Made by a program: the position numbers and the translations under genes | Assembly (NCBI GenBank): GCA_041658285.1 | Contig: JBBAAP010000011.1 | Coordinates: 3,308-67,307 of the forward strand | From: Candidatus Brocadiia bacterium | Lineage (GTDB): Bacteria > Planctomycetota > MHYJ01 > JACQXL01 | DNA: 64,000 nt | Reading direction: 5' to 3' | Notes under the pieces: generated by a model | What the model saw: only the letters and a program-made list of their open reading frames with translations | Databases searched by the model: none | What the model was told of the DNA's origin: nothing | Shown: piece after piece, positions 15,497 through 42,042 of the stretch | Layout of the letters: each line of letters opens with the position of its first letter | Position numbering within the stretch: position 1 is the first letter of the stretch

Positions 15497-16117
15497 ATGT
15501 CAAAACGAATATTTATATATCCGGTTTTATTATTATGTATCATTTCAATTTGTTGTAGTTCATCTGGGGCAAAACCGGCAACAAATATAGGGGCATTAGC
15601 ACAAGAACCGTTATCGTTAGAGTGTTTTGATGAGGCCATTGAAGGCTCCCCTTTAAAAAATGGGATGGTAAGGGTGAAATGTACTTGGTATGATTTGTTC
15701 TATCAAACCGAAATACAACCGGCGAGTATTAAGGTGAAAAATACGGGTAGATTATATTTTATTTCAAGTGGTGGAGCTCCTGCCGTTGCTTTGCATGAAG
15801 ATTCAAGTAGAAATTTTGCCCTTATATATGATGTTAAATCAATAGCTGAAAATTTGATTACGTTAAATTTAAAAGGAACACTATCTTATGTTAAAGAGAA
15901 TTTTTTTGTAGAATCTTTATGGGAAGGCACTGTGAAAAATGGCGAGGAGCAAGCTTTCAGTAAAGTATTCACAGACCCTATCAGTAAAGAAAATCGGTTG
16001 CTGTTAATTATAATTAAAGCTAATAATAAAAATGACAGCACAGATCCAGTTGACGAATACCGCAAAATGCATCCCTTTCTGAAAGAGCCTGACAAATCCA
16101 AAGAGCAACCTAAATAG
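15497..16117 (+). CDS. hypothetical lipoprotein
   Basis: 206 aa. Signal peptide with lipobox region (LLLCIISICCSSSG). AT-rich. Confidence 0.45.
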   Translation: MSKRIFIYPVLLLCIISICCSSSGAKPATNIGALAQEPLSLECFDEAIEGSPLKNGMVRVKCTWYDLFYQTEIQPASIKVKNTGRLYFISSGGAPAVALHEDSSRNFALIYDVKSIAENLITLNLKGTLSYVKENFFVESLWEGTVKNGEEQAFSKVFTDPISKENRLLLIIIKANNKNDSTDPVDEYRKMHPFLKEPDKSKEQPK

Positions 16118-18410: not shown

Positions 18411-21400
18411 ATGAAACCAGCTGATATTCATAATCCCGCTCCGCTGCGCTTCGGGGATAAGGTCCTTTCAGGAGGCTGCGCACTGCCACTAACTCGTTAT
18501 ACTCGAAGTGGCACTAAACCGGGTATTGCACTGGTGATGGTGCTTTTGGTCCTGCTGGTTCTGATGTTCCTGGGCATACCGTTTGTCGCCTCGATGCTTC
18601 TTAAAGAGAAAACTAATAAGAATTCGCTGTTTTTGGCCAAGAGCCGCATTGCTGCGGTCAGCGCCCGCAATTATGCCATCGCTTCGCTCGTTCGTGGATG
18701 CCTGAGCGAGGAACGTAAGGATACGGCGCTTGACCCGTTCAATACCCCGGATTATGACGTCGGAGTCGAGTTTGCCTCGAGGGAGATGACTTATACCGAT
18801 GTGGCTGACCCCAAGGGTGTTATCTGGTCCACCCGGGTAATCGATGAACAATCCAAGATTAATATCGGAGAAATCGCCAAGGCGGCTGAAAACCATCATA
18901 CCTTGATGAATAACCTGATTTCCCAGATGAAGCCGGCCGACAAGCTGGATGATTACATTACCGAGCACAGTTACCGCGCCACGCCCTGGGTGGACGCGCA
19001 GATGTTGGGCGGATATATGCTATACCAGGATTATAAAGATATCATGCGCACGGCGCTTTACCTGAAGAATTCATATTGGTACAGCGAGACCGGCGTCCGG
19101 GTCCGGTTGACTGCCGGTAACAGGGAGTTTATCTCTACGGCCAGTTACCAGCCCTGCGGACAGGGGCTTTGCCTTGATGCTAATTCCATTAAGGTTGTTC
19201 CGCTGGAATACAGTCCGCATATACAACACCCGCATAAAAAGCCGCCTTTCCCTTTGAATCAAGAAATATGGCGGACCGTAGCGGCCGGAGGATACACCTG
19301 GCTTTACATTGACCGAAACGTGCCGCCAGAGTTCCTGACGCCGGATACTATTTTCGAGGTGGAACAGCCGCACGCGGTGAATATAAACACCGCACCCAAG
19401 GAATTGGTCACGGCCTTATTGTGGGAATTGGGCCGGCGGTATTATGACCCGATTTTTAGCAGGCAGGTTGACGAGCGCATCAGTCTGGGCCAGGCCCAGA
19501 TGCTGGCCACAATGATAAAATCACGTGACTTCGCTAATCCAACCGACTGGCTGGGTTTCCTGCTCGATGTCAATGACAGCCGGATTATCACGGGGACGCA
19601 CGTATCGGCCTTGTGGACTAATTCGCGCCATCCCCGGTCATCGGCTTTTTACGATATTATCGACGAGCGGTTTACCGGGACATTGCCGTTCTGCTACCGC
19701 AGTTATGATACCTATAATATTAAGTCCACCGGCGTGGTTAATTATCCTTCAGGGTTGGAAGCGGCTCGGACGGTATTCAATGATATTGTGGAAGTTGCTC
19801 CGGCCCAGACTGCTACATTCCTTCTTGAGTCGCAATACGATTTTGATGAACAGTTTAATATGTTGTTGGGTAACCCCAGGCGATTCAGCACATTTCCTAA
19901 CGTATCTACTTTAAGGGTGGATAATTACATTGTCGGTTCGACTGAATACGTTGAGCCGGATTATTTGCGTTCAACCCAGCCGGAGATTGGGGAACTAAAG
20001 CTGAAGACGGCTGAAGATGACCGGGGAATAGACGTGATTTATAAGGATTCTTTTGAAGACACCCAGGAAGGGGAGCAGTTGGCCGGGACAGCTTTGACCT
20101 ATCAGAGCGATGATACGTTTGTTTTTCCGCCGGACCCGGCGAATAAGCCGGATATTTATCCGGGCGGAATCGAGCTCTGGGTGAAATTTTCTGCCAGCCC
20201 GTCGGGGTATATCGCTGATATTCGCCAGAGCGAATACGAGAACCGGATAAGCATTTCTTACGAGAATAACGAGTTGATATTGACGGTTTGTGACGCGGGC
20301 ATAGAGCGAAAATCGGCGCGGGTGGTGGCGCCGGTACAGTTGAGGGAAAATATCTGGTATCACATCGGCGCTTATTTTGAAGGCACCAAGCATTCCGGAT
20401 TGGCTTTATTCCTGGACGGCAAACCGGTGGGCAGTTTTGCTCACTACGACGATATGGACCGGGCTATTATTACGGAGTTGATGGCTGATGTGCCGGATAC
20501 GGTTACAGTCGCACCCGGGACTGACCTGATAATTCCGGTTAAGGATACCTCTTGTTTCCCGGGATCCGGTGTTATCCAGGTTGGAGAAGAAGCCATTGAA
20601 TATTCCGAAATCGTCGGCGGCGGGTTCAAAGTCCCGGTTTTTTGGAATATGTCGAATACCCCTCCGACTCCGGTGGGGAACGGCCGGGGACAGCGCGGCA
20701 CGGTGCTTATGGCGCATCCGGCCGGCGCTAAGGTAACGCCCTTTGGCTATTCTAACTTATTCGTCAGCAATGTTGATGTAACTGGTCCCGGTTTTCCTGC
20801 ACCGGTCCGGATAGATTATCAGCCCCTGCCGAAAGGCGGCGCTACTTTAGTTGAAAGCATTCTTGACACCTTGCCGCAGACAACTATTAACTGGCCTTTA
20901 GGTATTGATGCGGCAGATACGGTTATTACCGTTACTTCGGTAACTAATTTTCCTAATGAGGGATACGTCAGGCTGGGCAATAATGAAGTTATTTTTTATT
21001 TAGGTAAGGATGACAACTCCAAAACGCTGTTGAATTGCCGACGCGGTTTGTTGGGCACTGTCGGCCGTGACCACAGCAGCGGCGAGGCCGTGGATATGTA
21101 TTCCATAAAGGTCTCCGACAATACCGAATATCCGTCGCCGGGTATGATTCAGATTGACGACGAATGGATAGGGTTGGTCCAGAAAGGGGAAACGCCCGAA
21201 TACTTTACAGGCGTGGTTAACGGTACTACTCCGGTTGATTTTATGAGAGGTGTCTACGGACAAAGGACGCCTCATATGTCCGGAGCCTTGATTATTCCGG
21301 TGCTGGCGGCTGATGAACCTACTTGCGGCAAGGGCGATGTGGTGACTATTGTCGAAGATGACCATGTGACTGACAGCAAAGAAATGAAAACCATCCGTAA

Positions 21401-22532
21401 CGCAATGCGTTACAATGACGCGCAGACCGGAGAACCGAAATGTTTGCTGGCTTTTTTTGATAATCTTAGCAGGAATTATGATGTTGACGGAATAACAAGG
21501 ATGCTTAAATTTCCTTCGGATGAACTGCCTTCTTACTTGCCGGGCAATTTTTATATCGGCGGGGATGAGGCAGGTGGGTCTATACTGGGAATGGTGGATG
21601 AATTAAAGTGCTACAGCGGGGACCAGATAAATCGCCCGCTTTCGGACACATTGTATTCCGATACGCACAATGACCGGATCAGGGTACTGAATCTTAATGG
21701 CATGTCACCTTCAGGCGGGGTTATCAAAATAGGGGATGAGATTATCGGGTATGGCGGTATCGATTACCTGGCCGGCGAAATTACCGGGTGCGTACGCGGA
21801 TATCTCAATTCTACGCCGCAAACGCACGACTATCGGGAGAGGATATTCTATATTCCTTATTTGCCGGTGGCTGCATTAAAAAATAATCTTAGCCCGACTG
21901 ATTTTTCCGTGCCGGTCAGTACTATGAATGGTTTTTCGACGGACGCGGCTTATTTGTTGGTTGGTAATGACTTCAGCCAATCGGAGATGATCGGGTATCT
22001 TTGGCGAGATACCGGTAATGGACAGTTTCTGATGCCTTCTGATCGGACCGGTACGGGAATGTTCCGGGGGGCATTTGGGACTCCGGTTGGTTCATTTATA
22101 CAGGGGACGCTGGTTTACGCCATGCCGTTCCGTTACTGGCATTTGGAAAAACGCCAGGCGTTTCATCATGAAATGGCCTATTTCCATACGGCTCATTTTT
22201 CACGGGATGCCACATGGCAGAAGGTGCGCTGGACTGAGCGGCACGATCCGGCAGACGATGGGCTGGTCCAGTGGAGATTCTTAGTTCGGTTTGATAGCGG
22301 GCCGCACTGGGCCGATACGCCAACGAACCGCAAGGACGGTTTGTTTGAGTTCTTTTCACGGAATAGGGAGCAGGTTCTTAACATCGTTGCTAACCAGATA
22401 GAACTGCTGGCATTTGTCCAGTACCAGCCTGGCGCATTTCTTACGGATTCCTGGAAACGCGCCCCAGCTTTGACTAATCTATACATTGATTATTCTAAAC
22501 CTTCAGATATTATTTCCCACCAGGAAGAATAA
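18411..22532 (+). CDS. giant GspK-like pseudopilin N-terminus fused to a LamG/ConA-like adhesin-type extracellular region
   Basis: 1373 aa. N-terminal KPGIALVMVLLVLLVLMFLGIPF hydrophobic segment resembles GspK/PilX-type minor pseudopilins and lacks a classical G-FTLIE motif. A central segment (ELWVKFSASPSGYIADIR...WYHIGAYFEGTKHSGLALFLDGKPVG) looks like a laminin-G/concanavalin lectin fold. Exact start codon uncertain. Confidence 0.55.
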   Translation: MKPADIHNPAPLRFGDKVLSGGCALPLTRYTRSGTKPGIALVMVLLVLLVLMFLGIPFVASMLLKEKTNKNSLFLAKSRIAAVSARNYAIASLVRGCLSEERKDTALDPFNTPDYDVGVEFASREMTYTDVADPKGVIWSTRVIDEQSKINIGEIAKAAENHHTLMNNLISQMKPADKLDDYITEHSYRATPWVDAQMLGGYMLYQDYKDIMRTALYLKNSYWYSETGVRVRLTAGNREFISTASYQPCGQGLCLDANSIKVVPLEYSPHIQHPHKKPPFPLNQEIWRTVAAGGYTWLYIDRNVPPEFLTPDTIFEVEQPHAVNINTAPKELVTALLWELGRRYYDPIFSRQVDERISLGQAQMLATMIKSRDFANPTDWLGFLLDVNDSRIITGTHVSALWTNSRHPRSSAFYDIIDERFTGTLPFCYRSYDTYNIKSTGVVNYPSGLEAARTVFNDIVEVAPAQTATFLLESQYDFDEQFNMLLGNPRRFSTFPNVSTLRVDNYIVGSTEYVEPDYLRSTQPEIGELKLKTAEDDRGIDVIYKDSFEDTQEGEQLAGTALTYQSDDTFVFPPDPANKPDIYPGGIELWVKFSASPSGYIADIRQSEYENRISISYENNELILTVCDAGIERKSARVVAPVQLRENIWYHIGAYFEGTKHSGLALFLDGKPVGSFAHYDDMDRAIITELMADVPDTVTVAPGTDLIIPVKDTSCFPGSGVIQVGEEAIEYSEIVGGGFKVPVFWNMSNTPPTPVGNGRGQRGTVLMAHPAGAKVTPFGYSNLFVSNVDVTGPGFPAPVRIDYQPLPKGGATLVESILDTLPQTTINWPLGIDAADTVITVTSVTNFPNEGYVRLGNNEVIFYLGKDDNSKTLLNCRRGLLGTVGRDHSSGEAVDMYSIKVSDNTEYPSPGMIQIDDEWIGLVQKGETPEYFTGVVNGTTPVDFMRGVYGQRTPHMSGALIIPVLAADEPTCGKGDVVTIVEDDHVTDSKEMKTIRNAMRYNDAQTGEPKCLLAFFDNLSRNYDVDGITRMLKFPSDELPSYLPGNFYIGGDEAGGSILGMVDELKCYSGDQINRPLSDTLYSDTHNDRIRVLNLNGMSPSGGVIKIGDEIIGYGGIDYLAGEITGCVRGYLNSTPQTHDYRERIFYIPYLPVAALKNNLSPTDFSVPVSTMNGFSTDAAYLLVGNDFSQSEMIGYLWRDTGNGQFLMPSDRTGTGMFRGAFGTPVGSFIQGTLVYAMPFRYWHLEKRQAFHHEMAYFHTAHFSRDATWQKVRWTERHDPADDGLVQWRFLVRFDSGPHWADTPTNRKDGLFEFFSRNREQVLNIVANQIELLAFVQYQPGAFLTDSWKRAPALTNLYIDYSKPSDIISHQEE

Positions 22533-22589
22533 TTCGGGTTGAGCGCAACAATAGACCGAAAATATATAAGGGCTTGGTAAGGTTTTTAG

Positions 22590-22618
22590 TTGACAAATCA
22601 ACCAGTTTGTCATATACT
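22590..22618 (+). promoter_or_regulatory. sigma70-like promoter (TTGACA-17-TATACT)
   Basis: TTGACA at 22590-22595 and TATACT at 22613-22618, 14 nt before the ATG at 22632. Confidence 0.45.
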
Positions 22619-22631
22619 ATACACAAGATAT

Positions 22632-23732
22632 ATGAAAAGAACGTTTCAATTATTAATAGTGGTAATCATTGTTCTGGGCGGTTATATTGTTCTTGATTTT
22701 GTCCAGAGCAGGGCAGATGAGAAGCTTTTTCAGAAACAGTTGGAGACTTCAGTTACTGGACCTGCGATATCAAATGAAACTATAAACCGCGGTATTGCTA
22801 AAGAGATTCTTGTGAAGATGCCCTGGCCCAGTTTCGAAGGTACAAATGTCGGCAAGCCTGTTTCTCAGGCTGATGTTGTTGTCAAGTCACAGTTAAGGCT
22901 TAATGGCATAATTATTGAGCCGGGCCGCCCGGCTACGGCTTTTATTGAGGATCTGATTTCCAAGCAGTCTGGCTGGTATATCGAAAATGAGCGTTTGAAC
23001 GAGTGGATTATTGTCAAGATAACAGAGGATGAAGTAACGCTTCGCAACAATGCCGGTGAAATTTCCCGATTGACTATAGAGCGCACTTGGGGAGCGGCCA
23101 TAACCAATAGCGTGGTGGATTTGGTCAAAGGAGCTCAGAATATTGTTAATATGGCGTCGCCGGCTAATATGGCTGATATGGCCAAGATAATTGAGCCTAT
23201 GCTTAAAAAGGATGTACCCATAGAGCAGCTTCGGCCTCAGATTCAGGCGATTATTAATACTTTACCGCGCAAGGTTATCGAAGATCAGCTTCAGACATTG
23301 GGGATTGCGCCTTCAGAGATACCGCCGGATACAAACCTGACCGATTATGCGATAAAATTACTGGCTATTGGGCGTAATGAACAGGTTACTATTAGTGGGG
23401 CAGTCGTTGATATGCTGTTTTCACTTCAGGTTAATAAGGACAATAGCCCAATGACGCCGACAAAGATATTACCGATTGGTAAATACCGGATTTATGCTTG
23501 TTTCCCCAATAAGGATGCGTTAAAAGGGATATCTAAAGCAATTATTCGTTGGAATAACCAGACATCGGGGGAAACAGTAAGCATGAAACTTCATTCACTT
23601 GATCCTAATGCGCCCAACAATTTTATCTGGTTGGAGGCGAAGGAAGGTTGGACCAGGGGTACCTACGAGGTGGAACTTTTCAGGGTTAATACAGCCGAAA
23701 AGGTGGCTAGCGGAATATATAGAGTGGAGTGA
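22632..23732 (+). CDS. hypothetical membrane-anchored periplasmic protein (candidate secretin-associated component)
   Basis: Start taken at MKRTFQLLIVVIIVLGGYIVL (signal anchor). No recognised domain. Tightly coupled to the secretin gene with a 4-nt gap. Confidence 0.4.
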   Translation: MKRTFQLLIVVIIVLGGYIVLDFVQSRADEKLFQKQLETSVTGPAISNETINRGIAKEILVKMPWPSFEGTNVGKPVSQADVVVKSQLRLNGIIIEPGRPATAFIEDLISKQSGWYIENERLNEWIIVKITEDEVTLRNNAGEISRLTIERTWGAAITNSVVDLVKGAQNIVNMASPANMADMAKIIEPMLKKDVPIEQLRPQIQAIINTLPRKVIEDQLQTLGIAPSEIPPDTNLTDYAIKLLAIGRNEQVTISGAVVDMLFSLQVNKDNSPMTPTKILPIGKYRIYACFPNKDALKGISKAIIRWNNQTSGETVSMKLHSLDPNAPNNFIWLEAKEGWTRGTYEVELFRVNTAEKVASGIYRVE

Positions 23733-23736
23733 ATTT

Positions 23737-25668
23737 ATGAAATATAAGATTCTTGTCATGTGTTTATTGATGATGGCTCCGGTGTTTGCCCAAGAGCCTG
23801 CGACGCCTTCCACGCCCACAGGAGGTGTGGTAAAATATAATGGTCCGGTTAAGCTGAGTGAACTTCTTGGGTACATAGGGAACCGCGAGCAGAGGACCAT
23901 TATTTATGCCGATGCGGCTATCCCGCAGGAAACCATATTTGTTATTACGCCCAAGGAAGGCATCTCTGTGGATAATTTCCTTAATATGATAGATACATTG
24001 CTTAGGTTGAAGAATGTAGTGGCTATTAGAACGGAAACCACGCTTAAGGTGATGAGGACAGGTGATGCCCGCGACATTACGCCGGTTAGGCCGCCTGCTG
24101 ATATAGGGAGTCTGCCCGATACCGACCAGCTTATTACCCAAACTATCCCATTGAAGTATCTTGATGCCAATACGGCTAATCAGATAGTTCAGCAGATGAG
24201 GGGCAAGGATACTCAGAGTATTGCTTCGATGGATGGCAACAGTATTATTGTTGTCGATTATGCATCCAACATCAAGAGGTTTTACGAGATATTAAAACAG
24301 CTTGATATTGAGCAGACGCCCTATCTGAGCGAGGTAAGGATATTGAAGAACGCATCTTCCACCGCAGTCAAAACTGCGCTGGATAGTTATGTTCAGGGTA
24401 CGGCGCAGTTCATTAAGCAAAAGGCCGGAGTGCCTCCGGCCCGTCCTTTTATCACGGTTGATGAACGTACCAGCACTATAATGATATTTGCCTTAGAGAA
24501 AGATATGCCACAGCTTTTAAAGCTGGTTGAAATGCTTGACAAGGAAGCGGCGCAGAAGGATACGTCGGTTTATATTTACAAGTTGGTCAATACCACAGCG
24601 GATGATATCGCGAAAATAGTTTTGGATGCTTACAGCAAACAACAGTTCCAACCGCCGGCCCGCCGGACTATGGAAATTATCAGCGTCACTGCAGAAAAGA
24701 GCACTAACTCACTGATTATTGTTGCTCCGCCTAGAATTTATGAAGAGATGGTTGAGTTGATAAAAAAACTAGATGTCCGTAAATTGCAGGTGAACATTGA
24801 GGCGGCTATTGGTGAGTTTTCTTACGACAAGATGCTGGAACTTGGTATCGAACTCGCCGCATTCAGCCAGCCGACTGTTGCGGGTACTAATGCGACGAAT
24901 GTTAGTGGTGCGCCGCTTCCCGGTGTTATTGCCGGAACTACTTTTGGTTTGTCGCAAATAAAGCCGGATGGGGGAAAAGTACCTATTCCGCCGACATATG
25001 GTGGTTTGACAATGGGTTTATGGGCCGGGAAACAAGACAGCATTCCTTTTTTGCTCAGGGCGGCTAAAACAGATGGAGACGTTAATGTCAAGGCCGCGCC
25101 TTCTATTGTGGTTAATGATAATTCAGAGGCAACGATTACTATCGGGGAAAAGATTCCTTATGATACGAAAACAGTCGGGCCGGATGGTACGGTTACTGGC
25201 ATTACTTTCGGCGGATATCTGGAAGCAGCTATTAAGCTTAAGATAATTCCTCATATCAGCGAGGATGATTATCTGCGGCTTGAAATAGACCAGACAGTTG
25301 ATGAATTTATGGAAACATCGTATTCAGATACAAGGCCGGGTACGACCTCGCGTTCGGCCAAGACCATGGTGACTATTCCGAATAAGAATACAGTTGCTAT
25401 CGGCGGGATGAAGAAAGAGTATAAAACTTACACTGTGTCCAAGGTTCCTTTTTTAGGTGATATACCGATATTTGGGTTTTTCTTTAGCAAGACCAAGGAG
25501 GTTGTGCGGGAGAAATACCTGTGGATATTCATCAAGCCGGAGATTATAAAGAATTTTCAGGATTTGATTGAGAAGACCAAGCAGGATCAGAAAACGCTGG
25601 AAGGTGTTCAGAATAATAAAGAGGGTATTAAGGATAAGGACTACATAGAAACACCTGTTAATAAATAA
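23737..25668 (+). CDS. secretin (GspD/PilQ family outer-membrane channel)
   Basis: Start re-called at MKYKILVMCLLMMAPVFAQ (signal peptide). N-domains, then C-terminal secretin core (NVKAAPSIVVNDNSEATITIGEKIPY ... VPFLGDIPIFGFFFSKTKEVVREKYLWIFIKPEII). Confidence 0.85.
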   Translation: MKYKILVMCLLMMAPVFAQEPATPSTPTGGVVKYNGPVKLSELLGYIGNREQRTIIYADAAIPQETIFVITPKEGISVDNFLNMIDTLLRLKNVVAIRTETTLKVMRTGDARDITPVRPPADIGSLPDTDQLITQTIPLKYLDANTANQIVQQMRGKDTQSIASMDGNSIIVVDYASNIKRFYEILKQLDIEQTPYLSEVRILKNASSTAVKTALDSYVQGTAQFIKQKAGVPPARPFITVDERTSTIMIFALEKDMPQLLKLVEMLDKEAAQKDTSVYIYKLVNTTADDIAKIVLDAYSKQQFQPPARRTMEIISVTAEKSTNSLIIVAPPRIYEEMVELIKKLDVRKLQVNIEAAIGEFSYDKMLELGIELAAFSQPTVAGTNATNVSGAPLPGVIAGTTFGLSQIKPDGGKVPIPPTYGGLTMGLWAGKQDSIPFLLRAAKTDGDVNVKAAPSIVVNDNSEATITIGEKIPYDTKTVGPDGTVTGITFGGYLEAAIKLKIIPHISEDDYLRLEIDQTVDEFMETSYSDTRPGTTSRSAKTMVTIPNKNTVAIGGMKKEYKTYTVSKVPFLGDIPIFGFFFSKTKEVVREKYLWIFIKPEIIKNFQDLIEKTKQDQKTLEGVQNNKEGIKDKDYIETPVNK

Positions 25669-36076: not shown

Positions 36077-36199
36077 AGTTACGCCTTTTTTTCTTAGAGT
36101 CTGTTAATCCATACAGCGTTATGGCGCCGAAGCGCCATGGTCCCGAAAGCATTCGGGGCCACTTCCCACAACTTCATAGATTATTAATCTTACATAACA

Positions 36200-36460
36200 T
36201 CAAACTGCTCCAATGTCTCATAGGACTGCTCCAATCCTATGTCAAATTATTATAATTGCTCATAGGACTGCTCTAATCCTATGACAAATCACTCCAACAT
36301 CTCACAGGATTGTTCAAATCCCTCAAGGGATTACTATAATCCCTCGCAGGATTACCACAATCCCTTGAAGGACTACTATAATCCTTTATCGGATTGCTAT
36401 AATCCCTCATAGGATTGCTAAAATCCTTCAAAGAATCACCATAATTATGTGAATATTATA
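36200..36460. repeat. degenerate direct tandem array (about 22-bp unit, ATAATCCCTCATAGGATTGCT-like, about 11 copies)
   Basis: Visible by eye. Units contain the internal palindrome TCCTATG/CATAGGA. Confidence 0.75.
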
Positions 36461-36689: not shown

Positions 36690-37814
36690 CTATCTTATTA
36701 TTTTTTTGATGCGGCTTACAGGCCAATATATTTTGCAGGTCTTCCCAATAATCTTTTCTTTTGGGATGGGGCCGTATTGGCGGCTGTCTTTGCTATTAGT
36801 TAAATTGTCGCCAATAACAAAATAGGTATTATTAGGAACCAGGTAAGGACCATAAGGCTCGGTATTTATTTGCTCTTCAAGCTGAGGGTATTCTTTGAAT
36901 AATTTACCGTTGACATAAGCTTTATTGCCTTTGACTTCAACGGTTTGGCTACCGTTGGCAATTATGCGTCTGATAAGTACCTTTTGGGGATCTTCCGGTG
37001 ATTCAAACGTAATAATGTCGCCGGGTTCAGGATTGGAAAACCTATAAGTCAGTTTTTCTACAATAATCCTGTCTTTCTCCATAATTGCCGGCTCCATTCC
37101 TTTTGTTGGAATGCGATATGTAACCAAAAGACTGGTAAGTAAGACATAAATAAAAACTTTATATAATAGCAAAAGAACTAAGAAGGTTATCAGTGTTTTC
37201 TTTGGTTCTTTTTGCGGTCTTTGCGCAGAAACAAAAGCATCGTAACAAACTATAAGACGGTATAATAATGCTAGAAGTAATGATACCCACCTATGTTGAA
37301 ATGTAATTTCATCAAGAAGAGCAAAGCCAATAATAAAAATAATGCCTTTTACCCATCTTTTACAATAAAGCTGGCCTACGCCCGGGAGTATATAAGAAAG
37401 AAAAACCGCCAACCAGGTGTTTTTCTGCGGCTGGTCGGCCGGAATGTCAGGCGGCAAGGAGGCGTTGTGATTGCGGACCAGTTTATGCGCATTAAATAAA
37501 TTCCAAATAGCCAATAAGACAGATAGCGTAAAAAAAAGGGCCGCCCAATGGAAAACTATCATTGGGCTGACCATCGAGTAAAATAAAGCAACTAACAATG
37601 AAAGATAGACAAACAGGATAGTTATTCCAATGGAGTTTCTTTTGGCGTATAGTTGGCCTGTGCCCGGTAAAATCCATGATAAACATACCGCCAGCCAGGG
37701 GTTTTTTACTTTTGCATTTTTCATATTTTCTTTTTTGTTCGGGGAGACTAAGACCGCTACAACTTTCCTTTCGCCTATCTTCCTCAAATTCCGGTGACAC
37801 CATATGAGCGCCAC
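36690..37814 (-). CDS. signal peptidase I (S26) homolog with substituted catalytic dyad and an extended N-terminal multi-TM region carrying a duplicated motif
   Basis: 374 aa. S26 boxes present: GMEPAI (canonical SMxPTL), GDIITF, LIRRIIANGS (canonical YIKRxxGxPGD), GDNLTNSKDSR. N-terminal repeats NPWLAVCLSWILPGTGQLYAKR and NTWLAVFLSYILPGVGQLYCKRW. Start codon uncertain (alternative Met at 37724). Confidence 0.65.
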   Translation of the reverse strand: MALIWCHRNLRKIGERKVVAVLVSPNKKENMKNAKVKNPWLAVCLSWILPGTGQLYAKRNSIGITILFVYLSLLVALFYSMVSPMIVFHWAALFFTLSVLLAIWNLFNAHKLVRNHNASLPPDIPADQPQKNTWLAVFLSYILPGVGQLYCKRWVKGIIFIIGFALLDEITFQHRWVSLLLALLYRLIVCYDAFVSAQRPQKEPKKTLITFLVLLLLYKVFIYVLLTSLLVTYRIPTKGMEPAIMEKDRIIVEKLTYRFSNPEPGDIITFESPEDPQKVLIRRIIANGSQTVEVKGNKAYVNGKLFKEYPQLEEQINTEPYGPYLVPNNTYFVIGDNLTNSKDSRQYGPIPKEKIIGKTCKIYWPVSRIKKIIR

Positions 37815-38362: not shown

Positions 38363-40147
38363 ATGAGAAATTATGCATTGCTTGTACTGGTATTGGCATG
38401 TTTTATTTTTGTGCTGCCTTGGGAACAGAATAGCGAAGCCTGGTGTCCAAACCCGCCCAAGACTATGGGCAGTGAAGCCGCGCCGCCGTCTGTTAACCCA
38501 ACGCCTGTCCTGGTTTCTCGTCCGGCTCTGAGCATAGGTTTGATGCCGCGCATCCAGGCGATGAGAACGCCGGTTGGGCCGACTTTGGACGGTGTGGCTG
38601 AGACTTGGGAGGTTTGGTGGACTCTCAACCGCGATAAATTCTTCAGCTTCAAGCAGCCGATCGAATGGGTCAGCATCAAGAAGACCGACGGCGGTACCAC
38701 CTCAATAACCAAACATCCGATATACGAAGAACTTCTTAAACTCTTAAGGACCGCTTTAACCGAGAAGGATCAGACCGTTGCCTGGAACGCGGCGCTGGCT
38801 TTGGGCCGGAGCGGCGAACCAACGGTTTTGCCGGATTTACAGAAAGCGTTCAAGGAGAATAAGCAGATCCTGGTCAAGGACTACTCCATCCTGGGGCAGG
38901 GCTGGCTTAGAAGCAACGAAGCCCTGGAAATGTTGAAATCAGTCGCGCTCGATAATAAGGAACAGGAAGTCCTGCGCAGTCATGCGGTAGCGGCTTTGGG
39001 ATACCTGTCCGACCCGGCCGTATTCGGGATACTGAAAAGCATTATTGAAGACAAGGAAAACAAGAAATTCACGGACCTGCGAGCCGCTGCGGCGATAGCC
39101 ATGGGTTTTACCAAGGATAAGGACGCGGTAACCACGCTGGCTGGTTTGCTCAATAGCGCCGAGAAGGTGAATCCTAAAATCCGCAGTTATGCGGCTATGG
39201 GCCTGGGCCGAATCGGCAATGAAGGTGCTTTCAATGAACTTAAGAAGGTTATGGCCGATCGTGACAACAGTGTCAGGGTATCCGCAGCCATCGCTTTGGG
39301 TATGATGAGTGTCGGCCCGGTTGGTTCAGCCAATGAGCCGAAAAAGATTCAGGATGAGCTGATCAGCCTTCTGAAAGACAAGCAGGGTATTATCCGCGGT
39401 CTGGCGGCCATATCACTGGCTCAGATCACGGTTAAAAATAAGGAAGTAATGGATACAAAAACCATCGTTCCGGCTCTATCCAAGGCTTTGAAGGATACCA
39501 AAACCGCCGATGGCGACGGCTTGATTGTCCTGGCCATGGGCATCCTCGGTGACGAATCATACAAGGCCGAATTCAAGAGCATAATGGAGGACCGTAAGAA
39601 GCGCCAGCTTCTCAAGGCGGCCGTAGTTATGGCTACTGGCTTGATGAAAGATAAAAGCCAGGCGCCGACCTTTATCGCTATGCTTAAGAAACAGTCCGAT
39701 GACCCAATTATGTCTCCGTATCTGATAATGTCGTTAGGCATGATCGGCGACGAAAAAGCACTCGAAGCCATCGAACCGATTTGGGCCAAGGTCGATAAAA
39801 ATGTCACTTCATTAGCCTATACCAATATGGCTGTGGCCATGTCCATGCTGGGCAAGAGAAGCGAAATCGTTGCTCAATTAATCCAACATACCAAGAGCAA
39901 TAATGATGCGCTTAAGCAGTATGCTTGCCACACGCTGGGTATGCTGGGCGACCGGGATTCGGCCAAGACTTTCGTGGAAAATTACAACAGCGAGAAGAGC
40001 GATACCAATAAAGCGTTTATCATCACCGGTATCGGATTTCTGATGGAAAAGGCGTCTTCACCTATAGTAGCTGAGTGGACAGGTAATAATAACACCGAGA
40101 TCTCGACGTTGATTATCGACCATTTATTGCCATTGCCCACCTGGTAA
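38363..40147 (+). CDS. secreted HEAT/PBS-lyase-type repeat protein (paralog A)
   Basis: 594 aa with signal peptide. Many AALALGRSG / AAMGLGRIG HEAT-like repeats. Shares WEVWWTLNRDKF and C-terminal IDHLLPLPTW with the next gene. Confidence 0.65.
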   Translation: MRNYALLVLVLACFIFVLPWEQNSEAWCPNPPKTMGSEAAPPSVNPTPVLVSRPALSIGLMPRIQAMRTPVGPTLDGVAETWEVWWTLNRDKFFSFKQPIEWVSIKKTDGGTTSITKHPIYEELLKLLRTALTEKDQTVAWNAALALGRSGEPTVLPDLQKAFKENKQILVKDYSILGQGWLRSNEALEMLKSVALDNKEQEVLRSHAVAALGYLSDPAVFGILKSIIEDKENKKFTDLRAAAAIAMGFTKDKDAVTTLAGLLNSAEKVNPKIRSYAAMGLGRIGNEGAFNELKKVMADRDNSVRVSAAIALGMMSVGPVGSANEPKKIQDELISLLKDKQGIIRGLAAISLAQITVKNKEVMDTKTIVPALSKALKDTKTADGDGLIVLAMGILGDESYKAEFKSIMEDRKKRQLLKAAVVMATGLMKDKSQAPTFIAMLKKQSDDPIMSPYLIMSLGMIGDEKALEAIEPIWAKVDKNVTSLAYTNMAVAMSMLGKRSEIVAQLIQHTKSNNDALKQYACHTLGMLGDRDSAKTFVENYNSEKSDTNKAFIITGIGFLMEKASSPIVAEWTGNNNTEISTLIIDHLLPLPTW

Positions 40148-40158
40148 AGGAGGGTCTA

Positions 40159-42042
40159 ATGAAGCGATTTCAAATCCTGGTTAGTGTTGGTGCAATTGTC
40201 CTGGCCATTCTATTCCTGACCGACAGCTTTATCTTCGGCTCCTGCCCGGGTTCGATGTTTTTCCGGCGCTCGCAAGCCAATCCTGAACCGGCCCAACCTA
40301 ATAACGATACTACTGAGACTAAGAAGGAAGAGCCTAAAAAGACGCCCGAGGTGGCCGCCGAGCCCAAGAAGGAAGAGCCTAAACAAGAATCCTCGACTGA
40401 AGCCACGCCGACTGCCATCAGCGCCGTCCGGCCGCCTTTAGGCAGCGGATTACAGCCGCGCATCACCAGCCTGCGCACCTTAGCCAACTCCGATGGCCAG
40501 ATTATGACTCTGGCCGGCATGGTCGAACCCTGGGAGGTATGGTGGACGCTTAACCGCGACAAATTCCTCAACTTCAGACAGCCGATTACGTGGGTTACTG
40601 TCAAGGAGTCGGAGGGCAGCAGGTCAGTCATCATACTGCCCATATACAAGGAACTTTTAGAAATATTAAAATCAGCCCTTAACGAAAGGGATTATACCCT
40701 GGTTTGGAATGCCGCCCTGGCTTTGGGCCGTTGCGGCGACCCCGAGGCGATACCTTTACTTCAGAAGGCGTTTAACGATACCGAGCACCCGCTGGTCAAG
40801 AATTATACACTGGTTAGCCTGGGTTGGATAAGAGACCCGTCTGCGGTGGATTTCCTTGCCGGCAAGCTTACTGACAAGAAAACACAGGAAATCGTCCGGA
40901 GCCACGCCGCGGTCGGCCTGGCCTATATCAACGAGCCGGGTTCGCTCAAGGCTCTGAATGAAACCATCAACGAAAAGGAATACCGCAAACAGGCAGACGT
41001 TGTTTGCGCCGCCGCCTACGCGTTGGGATTGCTTAAGGATAATTCTGCCGTCAAGACTCTGGCTGCTTACCTGAGCGGCGAGCTGAAATCAGATACCCGC
41101 ATCCGTTCCTACGCGGCTTTGGCCCTGGGACACATCGGCTCCAAGGATGCCTTCCAGGAGCTGAAGAAGTCCGCCGGCGATAAGGACAGGGGAGTGCGCA
41201 CATCAGTGGCCATTGCCCTGGGTTTGATGGAAGAACCCAAGGCCAAGGATGAGCTGCTTAATATGCTTCAGGACAAGGACGAGGTCATCCGGGGCATGGC
41301 GGCCCTGGCCCTGGCCGAGTCAACCCTGAAATATCCCGATAAGGCGCACAGCCAGAAGATGGTGTCAGACAACATTCTTAAATGCTTTGGTAATTGCAAG
41401 CGCGATGGACAGGGCTTGACCATAATTGCCCTGGGCATCCTGGGTGAATCTAAGATAAAACCGGAATTGCGCAAAATGCTCGAGGAAAAGCGGAAACCGC
41501 GCGCCGTCAAGGGCGCGGCCATAATGGCTTATGGTCTGCTGAAAGACAAGGAAGCCGTGCCGTTGCTGATGGATCTGCTTAAGACCACACCCGACGACCC
41601 GATACTGGCGCCTTATGCCATACTGGCCCTGGGCATGATCGGCGACGAAAAGGCCGTGGCATCAATCCAACCGCTCTGGGACCGGGTCGACAAAAACGTC
41701 AGCGCTGTGGCCTATTCCAATATGGCCGTATCGCTGTCCATGCTCGGCAAACGCAAGGAAGTGCTGGATCAACTGGTCAAGCATTCGGTCAAAGGGCAGA
41801 GCGACACCTTGAGACAATATTCATTGCATACGCTCGGCCTGCTGGCTGACAAGGAAGCGGCCCAGGCCTTTGTGGAGGCCTATAAAGAAGGCGATACCAA
41901 CGCCAAGGCCAACGCCGTGGTTGGCATCGGACTGCTTATGGAAAAGAACTCCATACCGCTGGTGACCCAATGGCTGGCCGACAATAATACCGACATATTT
42001 ACCTGGATAATCGACCATCTTCTGCCGATTCCGACGTGGTGA
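40159..42042 (+). CDS. secreted HEAT/PBS-lyase-type repeat protein (paralog B) with a Glu/Lys/Pro-rich linker
   Basis: 627 aa. Collinear with paralog A (WEVWWTLNRDKF ... IDHLLPIPTW). Extra KKEEPKK repeat region. Confidence 0.65.
   Translation: MKRFQILVSVGAIVLAILFLTDSFIFGSCPGSMFFRRSQANPEPAQPNNDTTETKKEEPKKTPEVAAEPKKEEPKQESSTEATPTAISAVRPPLGSGLQPRITSLRTLANSDGQIMTLAGMVEPWEVWWTLNRDKFLNFRQPITWVTVKESEGSRSVIILPIYKELLEILKSALNERDYTLVWNAALALGRCGDPEAIPLLQKAFNDTEHPLVKNYTLVSLGWIRDPSAVDFLAGKLTDKKTQEIVRSHAAVGLAYINEPGSLKALNETINEKEYRKQADVVCAAAYALGLLKDNSAVKTLAAYLSGELKSDTRIRSYAALALGHIGSKDAFQELKKSAGDKDRGVRTSVAIALGLMEEPKAKDELLNMLQDKDEVIRGMAALALAESTLKYPDKAHSQKMVSDNILKCFGNCKRDGQGLTIIALGILGESKIKPELRKMLEEKRKPRAVKGAAIMAYGLLKDKEAVPLLMDLLKTTPDDPILAPYAILALGMIGDEKAVASIQPLWDRVDKNVSAVAYSNMAVSLSMLGKRKEVLDQLVKHSVKGQSDTLRQYSLHTLGLLADKEAAQAFVEAYKEGDTNAKANAVVGIGLLMEKNSIPLVTQWLADNNTDIFTWIIDHLLPIPTW

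Follow-up and report, generated by a model that had tools for sequence, protein, structure and literature searches.

The locus described here raises the question of what a signal peptidase homolog can do once both of its catalytic residues are gone. The gene lies on the reverse strand, at 36690-37724, of a 64,000-nucleotide stretch of Candidatus Brocadiia bacterium DNA (assembly GCA_041658285.1, contig JBBAAP010000011.1, positions 3,308 to 67,307 of the forward strand), which we refer to as the window. It encodes a product of 344 amino acids plus stop that GenBank lists as MFA5795229.1, 'MAG: signal peptidase I [Candidatus Brocadiia bacterium]'. An earlier note, made from the letters alone, had described this product as a signal peptidase I paralog with the catalytic Ser and Lys replaced, and had read it as a substrate-binding pseudo-peptidase fused to a membrane module. 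Our analysis leads to a related position, namely that the protein is probably a non-catalytic pseudo-peptidase of the S26 family that is kept by selection and that most likely binds part of an exported or membrane protein while leaving it uncut.

The C-terminal 145 residues (200-344; positions 36693-37127, reverse strand as for all features of this gene) form a compact, predicted periplasmic S26 (signal peptidase I-like) domain. This region matches Pfam Peptidase_S26 (PF10502) over profile positions 3-168 of 168 with E=4.4e-37 (128 bits against a threshold of 22.9) and TIGR02227 with 135 bits against a cutoff of 47, which places the whole domain in the S26 fold family. Sequence matches in the PDB are to S. 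aureus SpsB, B. anthracis signal peptidase and E. coli LepB. Much of the signal peptidase signature is also present. Specifically, box C (GDIITF, 37005-37022) and box E (GDNLTNSKDSR, 36780-36812) are intact, as the earlier note had stated, and a transmembrane (TM) anchor stands directly before box B. Box E aligns with GDNRDNSADSR of E. coli LepB and supplies the equivalents of G272, D273, N274, S278, D280, S281 and R282 of that enzyme.

The two catalytic positions are altered. Box B (IPTKGMEPA, 37086-37112) has Gly209 (codon GGA, 37098-37100) at the position of the nucleophile Ser, and box D (VLIRRIIA, 36957-36980) has Arg252 (codon AGA, 36969-36971) at the position of the general-base Lys. 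HMMER alignments put Gly209 opposite Ser36 of SpsB, Ser90 of E. coli LepB and the corresponding Ser of the B. anthracis enzyme, and Arg252 opposite SpsB Lys77 and E. coli Lys145. With SpsB, 'YTIKGESMDPTL' pairs with 'YRIPTKGMEPAI' and 'YVKRVIG' with 'LIRRIIA', while with E. coli LepB 'FQIPSGSMMPTL' pairs with 'YRIPTKGMEPAI' and 'DYIKRAVG' with 'VLIRRIIA'. The family alignment described below agrees, having Ser and Lys in exactly the Gly209 and Arg252 columns in 130 of 183 members. A one-residue shift that would restore the Ser/Lys pair was considered and ruled out in three independent alignments: the M-x-P that follows the Ser and the Arg that follows the Lys are invariant anchors, and thus no change of register can rescue the dyad. 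Neither the Ser nor the Lys of a functional type I signal peptidase (nor the His of the endoplasmic reticulum type) is therefore found. The Ser/Lys dyad is essential in characterised S26 enzymes and Gly offers no nucleophile, so we take the protein as most likely non-catalytic.

The gene is nevertheless under constraint in spite of this loss. An 85%-identical ortholog on the 401-kb JGI metagenome contig Ga0265292_1000029 (locus L089) keeps both replacements, within the identical segments 'IPTKGMEPAIM' and 'VLIRRIIANG'. The ratio of nonsynonymous to synonymous substitution rates (dN/dS) between the two genes is 0.275 over the whole gene, 0.41 for the N-terminal module and 0.15 for the S26 domain, so that the most constrained part of the protein is the one that is catalytically disabled. 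The low S26 ratio, together with the retention of Gly/Arg in the ortholog, makes a maintained pseudo-enzyme a better reading than a decaying or broken gene, in line with what the earlier note had suspected.

This gene is also not a one-off but a member of a large family with recurrent dyad loss, a point that had gone unnoticed in the first reading. An exhaustive HMMER search of 1.84 billion representatives yielded 206 proteins with E<1e-30; among the best 150, the alignment to the query is nearly full-length in most. We use these to define an unnamed family, alignable end to end, in which two motif units and five TM helices precede a C-terminal S26 domain. A 183-sequence alignment contains 130 members with Ser and Lys and 53 (29%) without one or both, a proportion that falls to about 25% once possibly working Cys/Lys, Thr/Lys and Ser/His pairs are excluded, and among the 80 loci kept from 188 matched in GTDB species genomes, 37 lack Ser and/or Lys; all these fractions are within-family values and do not imply an enrichment of dyad loss in this architecture over ordinary S26 proteins. 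The 80 kept loci, which do not include the genome of the window itself, come mainly from Planctomycetota (Sedimentisphaerales, Phycisphaerales, Pirellulales) and filamentous Cyanobacteria. On a rough neighbor-joining tree built from a quick alignment of the 170 members of at least 300 amino acids (119 intact and 51 dyad-less), at least 32 changes between the intact and lost states are needed. The small clade of the window protein illustrates this pattern, as it comprises Gly/Arg (window), Ala/Lys (P0001, 49% identical), Ser/Lys (P0053, 46%) and Ser/Gln (P0054). There are also dead clades that span species, with Glu/Gln in Coleofasciculus and Ala/Lys in many genera.

What is retained in the dyad-less proteins is as informative as what is lost. 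The 51 dyad-less members differ from the 119 intact ones at the two catalytic columns only: they keep M210 in 100%, R253 in 98%, the GDN of box E in 90-96%, S311 in 90% and D313 in 98%, with Ser314 within 90-98%, and box E positions as a whole are 89-98% conserved. G235 and D236 of box C are conserved at 87-92% in dyad-intact and dyad-less members alike. Furthermore, hydrophobic residues occupy the positions that line the S1/S3 pockets of E. coli LepB in 91-100% of 47 dyad-less members (the 51 minus possibly active Cys/Lys and Thr/Lys variants). Selection on these proteins is again purifying, with dN/dS values of 0.15-0.31 in dyad-less cyanobacterial clades compared to 0.07-0.13 in an intact clade.

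Two further features of the family were observed. Filamentous cyanobacteria often have two family paralogs per genome (L025/L062, L037/L057, L042/L075, L040/L064, L028/L083, L031/L084), and in some genomes one copy is intact and the other dyad-less. Among the 80 of 188 matches kept, both copies seen are dyad-less in Moorena producens 3L (Gly/Lys and Ser/Ser) and in Coleofasciculus (Ala/Lys and Glu/Gln). Separately, P0001 (L001:7863-9188), the closest relative, extends at residues 346-441 into a 95-residue C-terminal tail that the window protein lacks and that contains the GspG-like pseudopilin motif 'DAWGNPYRY...YSYGENG'. This tail scores E=0.003 with Pfam T2SSG (below gathering) and E=0.25 with PDB entry 2kep, and is a weak lead towards pilin-like proteins.

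A Foldseek search with the structural model of the window protein gave as best match SipA of S. pyogenes (4n31; E=2.8e-8, TM-score 0.75 on the target, 27% identity), followed by SpsB and LepB. SipA has no activity, keeps its cleft and is indispensable for pilus polymerisation, and the authors of that study reason as we do on the loss of the essential dyad (PMC4049620). Both SipA/LepA (PDB 4n31, 4k8w) and the window protein have an S26 fold with both dyad residues replaced and a peptide-binding cleft retained, and both domains are of the compact Gram-positive-like type without the large E. coli-type insertion. However, there are several important differences. The replacements are Asp/Gly in SipA and Gly/Arg here; SipA has about 170 residues and a single N-terminal TM anchor, whereas the window protein has 344 residues, five TM helices and two hairpins; and SipA is encoded in a sortase/pilin (FCT) island of a Gram-positive coccus, whereas the window gene stands alone in a planctomycete. 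The window protein thus resembles SipA as a dyad-less S26 protein but is not a member of the SipA family. Since its nearest relatives include members with Ser and Lys intact, its dyad was lost independently of that of SipA.

Comparison with active enzymes of the LepB/SpsB/SipS type (MEROPS S26A, TIGR02227) shows the same fold, boxes B to E in the same order and a TM helix right before box B, but the window protein lacks the Ser nucleophile and Lys base and has an extra four-TM duplicated module at its N-terminus. It should therefore not be named signal peptidase I, the name it bears in GenBank. A functional analogy, and only that, can be drawn with iRhoms and Derlins, regulators of trafficking that are likewise polytopic, protease-derived proteins that have lost catalytic residues and kept their fold under purifying selection. 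These are eukaryotic and unrelated in fold and mechanism.

The remainder of the protein consists of the duplicated membrane module. The earlier note had recognized a duplicated motif, with copies KNPWLAVCLSWILPGTGQLYAKR at residues 7-29 (37638-37706) and KNTWLAVFLSYILPGVGQLYCKR at residues 101-123 (37356-37424), within an N-terminus of about 230 residues and some five TM segments. The duplication is borne out by BLASTP, which aligns the two units with E=1e-12 over 58 amino acids. However, the motifs are not adjacent, as each instead heads a duplicated unit of about 70-90 residues made of a hairpin and two TM helices. Likewise the five TM helices are found in the AlphaFold model, but the N-terminal portion shortens to about 200 residues when counted from the ATG at 37724. 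Repeat unit 1 spans residues 7-88 (37461-37706) with modelled helices at 9-18, 22-26, 30-52 and 58-88, the last two being TM1 and TM2, at a predicted local distance difference test score (pLDDT) of 94-98. Repeat unit 2 spans residues 101-167 (37224-37424), with helices at 103-112, 116-120, 124-141 and 145-167, the last two being TM3 and TM4. In each unit a 10-residue helix, a PGxG turn and a 5-residue helix form a hairpin, too short in its helices to cross the bilayer, ahead of the two long TM helices. Pfam models DUF5683 (PF18935; 36.1 bits against 26.7) and DUF6677 (PF20382; 29.7 against 24.3) both exceed gathering with two stretches each, the best stretch for unit 2 being 133-167 of the 374-residue mechanical reading frame. 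To the TM2 domain (PF05154) there is a resemblance only (10.2 bits against 27.9). Both units thus match models of small DUF6677, DUF5683 and TM2-YozV-like membrane proteins, and differ from these in being duplicated and fused to an S26 domain; a literature search found no paper that discusses these families. The profile search with the N-terminal unit that the earlier note had called for retrieves stand-alone DUF6677 proteins of 50-150 amino acids, whereas the module as a single-sequence query gave one fragment only.

An AlphaFold2 model of the full-length protein, run on a 31-sequence alignment, has a pLDDT of 87.2 and a predicted template modelling score of 0.80, and together with the Pfam matches it supports the fusion of an S26 homolog to a polytopic module that the earlier note had put forward. 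TM5 (residues 175-199; 37128-37202), preceded by the positively charged loop QRPQKEPKK, leads directly into the first S26 strand (residues 200-204) and the complete S26 fold follows. The membrane module modelled alone has a pLDDT of 91.6, and a PDB fold search with it returned only matches of E>4 and no analogue. Reading the sequence against the model helices, about 14 Lys and Arg residues fall in predicted cytoplasmic segments (clustered at the N-terminus, after each hairpin, between the units and before TM5) and about one in the two short outer loops. Because of this distribution we infer a topology with the N-terminus inside, in which both motif hairpins would lie at the cytoplasmic face and the S26 domain outside.

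These observations lead to the following model for the action of this protein. It would be an inner-membrane polytopic protein with a cytoplasmic N-terminus, in which each of the two DUF6677/DUF5683-type units would place a helix-PGxG-helix hairpin with its W..LS...PGxGQxY motif at the cytoplasmic face, followed by two TM helices, and in which TM5 would hold the compact S26 domain against the outer membrane face. With its hydrophobic S1/S3 groove and its box C and E residues, the S26 domain would present a binding cleft of the signal peptidase type, and with Gly for Ser and Arg for Lys an acyl-enzyme could not be expected to form. The cleft may then dock an exported or membrane protein by an extended small-x-small segment and leave it uncut. 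We propose this cleft-binding role because the cleft-forming and structural residues are retained under selection. In this way it could hold or escort the bound protein, or shield it from the real signal peptidase or compete with that enzyme, much as SipA acts non-enzymatically in streptococcal pilus assembly. The suggestion of the earlier note that the protein is a signal-peptide receptor, chaperone or secretion regulator draws on the same conservation of the groove and likeness to SipA (PMC4049620), and a role of this kind remains a candidate by analogy.

Several points weigh against the docking model. No gene neighborhood is shared among six contexts (the window, the ortholog L089 and four relatives), so that gene context gives no functional hint. 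The search for an active signal peptidase reached as far as the 64-kb window rather than the whole genome, and within it neither a canonical lepB nor any other second S26 gene came up that would bear out the word paralog in the earlier note. Retention of the groove was judged from alignment columns rather than model coordinates. SipA itself retained function after a mutation designed to block its cleft (PMC4049620), which indicates that a conserved cleft need not be the working surface. Finally, the N-terminal module could be the active part.

This last point is the basis of one of two alternatives that remain, namely that the duplicated module, for example as a lipid- or ion-binding or oligomerising unit, does the work and that the S26 domain is a folded periplasmic appendage without a ligand of its own. 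The W..S...PGxGQxY motif is indeed 76-100% conserved at key positions in dyad-intact and dyad-less members alike, the unit occurs on its own as small DUF6677 or 'TM2 YozV'-type proteins in unrelated phyla, and the module is confidently modelled as a distinct fold. However, selection between the window gene and L089 is stronger on the S26 domain than on the module, which argues against a passive appendage, and conservation of groove and box E residues in dyad-less members would not be expected of one. We regard this alternative as unlikely.

A second alternative, which we consider improbable, is that the protein is a regulatory subunit of an active signal peptidase, the dead paralog pairing with the live enzyme and tuning or localising it in the manner of iRhoms, rather than binding substrates by itself. 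Pairing of a dead with a live copy is a common fate of pseudo-enzymes, and intact and dyad-less members do coexist in the genomes of Laspinema palackyanum (Ser/Lys and Ser/Phe), Leptolyngbyaceae MO_188 (Ser/Lys and Ala/Lys) and Cyanophyceae Co_metawrap_1029 (Ser/Lys and Ser/Cys). On the other side, there is no second S26 gene in the 64-kb window or within about 10 kb of 87 related loci. The two dyad-less copies seen in Moorena producens 3L and in Coleofasciculus also speak against such pairing, with the proviso that intact copies may be missed among the matches kept.

Two other alternatives are disfavoured, because of the selection data and the chemistry. It is very doubtful that the protein is still a peptidase by means of Thr207, or by substrate assistance with Lys208 or Arg252. 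Thr207 and Lys208 do lie next to the position of the lost nucleophile and persist in the 85% ortholog, and relatives with Cys/Lys, Thr/Lys and Ser/His pairs could plausibly be active, given that the E. coli S90C enzyme is active and that SipW-type enzymes use Ser/His. But Gly provides no nucleophile, position 208 is variable across dyad-less relatives, and Thr207 aligns with E. coli Ser88, which is an oxyanion-hole residue and not a nucleophile. The equivalent idea was tested in SipA and rejected (PMC4049620). Least probable of all is that the gene is a relic in decay, a redundant copy of the lepB type that is turning into a pseudogene. In favor of this, both catalytic residues are gone, third-position GC is atypical, another gene call at the locus is truncated and unitig assemblies break inside and beside the gene (details below). 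Against it, two genomes carry an intact reading frame, the S26 domain shows the constraint noted above, all structural motifs are intact in a confidently predicted fold and the same pattern is maintained in many independent lineages.

The extent of the gene was examined separately. The open reading frame listing for the window contains the mechanical frame at 36690-37814 on the reverse strand, which opens with an in-frame GTG-initiated extension of 30 residues (37725-37814). Homologs begin about 10 residues ahead of motif 1 and none of them carries this extension, and the L089 frame likewise opens at the equivalent ATG; for these reasons we chose the ATG at 37724, which is almost certainly the true start. 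The segment 37725-37814 is thus probably a 5' untranslated or promoter region rather than coding sequence. Some 60 nucleotides of it (37725-37783) are conserved at the DNA level with L089, yet the frame is not open there. Promoter and terminator scans stayed near shuffle expectation, and Rfam searches of the gene flanks gave chance-level microRNA matches only. An exact look-up of the window protein and of the 130-residue gene call P0041 returned no record. The JGI/ENA gene call for this same locus covers only 130 amino acids (residues 215-344). Run SRR8449812 contains two Logan unitig contigs that match the window at 100% identity and end at 36151 and 37377, leaving the 3' two-thirds of the gene and a downstream repeat array unassembled, possibly as a result of strain variation or low coverage around these ends.

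The gene is also a low-GC islet (36690-37783; L089:9941-11035), with a GC content at third codon positions (GC3) of 0.386 here and 0.406 in L089, compared to 0.52-0.73 in its neighbors and a locus GC of 0.53. At the DNA level, the window and L089 resemble each other only over the gene and about 60 nucleotides upstream, and the neighborhoods are unrelated. Low GC together with this confined similarity suggests relocation or horizontal transfer of a single-gene unit. A mobile-element origin was considered and rejected, as no relatives of the gene were found on viral contigs and the matches on plasmids are to ordinary lepB genes, over the S26 domain alone. Another compositional outlier in the window is a 206-residue open reading frame at 15497-16117, which matches no Pfam model and whose GC3 of 0.28 is lower than that of any other gene in the window.

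No sortase or pilin is encoded near the gene in the window, where its neighbors are a divergent cutA and genes for two HEAT-repeat proteins, an fn3 protein and a TIM-barrel protein; in L089 the neighbors are PFOR subunits, purH, dapF, DUF488 and glnA. Much of the 613-nucleotide spacer downstream of the gene (39.6% GC) is filled by the repeat array, at 36208-36445, which has about 11 tandem 21-nucleotide units, each with a GGATTATAGYAATCC-like palindrome. This motif occurs nowhere else in the window (6 matches against 0.33 expected) and has no Rfam match. The two HEAT/PBS-lyase-repeat proteins (38363-42042; 594 and 627 amino acids) are tandem paralogs with hydrophobic N-termini. They are followed by a 179-residue protein of no known type, a Fer4_5 protein, a NicO-like membrane protein and a HEAT plus squalene-cyclase-like protein, and the whole row is apparently one operon. 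Farther away, at 18411-25668, a 1373-residue protein with a sub-threshold laminin-G-like match only, a 380-residue uncharacterized protein and a secretin (Secretin_N plus Secretin) stand in a row; the window showed none of the other genes for a type II secretion or type IV pilus apparatus. A link between our gene and this secretin, 11 kb away, was dropped, as housekeeping genes lie between them and the secretin is absent from the L089 locus.

To our knowledge, non-catalytic signal peptidase homologs are known essentially from one case, the streptococcal SipA, and in the searchable literature we found no paper on the present family or on other bacterial dyad-less S26 proteins. The window protein extends SipA-like dyad loss to another phylum and another architecture, and it brings to light a family whose examined members lack the dyad in a quarter to nearly half of cases while remaining under purifying selection. 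Of more interest than the single gene is this broader pattern, in which a polytopic S26 family loses the dyad again and again and selection maintains the outcome. The annotation of such proteins as 'signal peptidase I' by pipelines overstates the enzymatic repertoire of these genomes.

The kept loci are seen mainly in bacteria with elaborate internal membranes, namely Planctomycetota and the thylakoid-bearing filamentous Cyanobacteria. A far-reaching generalization, to which we give little credence at present, is that two-unit DUF6677-S26 proteins are widespread polytopic pseudo-signal-peptidases, maintained by selection as cleavage-site receptors that would decide whether, where or when exported proteins are processed or retained. 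They would then be a bacterial counterpart of pseudoprotease control of trafficking, and the loss of Ser and Lys would mark a repeated recruitment of enzyme to regulator. If it is true that export substrates are bound uncut, then these proteins would constitute an unrecognised layer of control over protein export or membrane-protein biogenesis, especially in planctomycetes and cyanobacteria.

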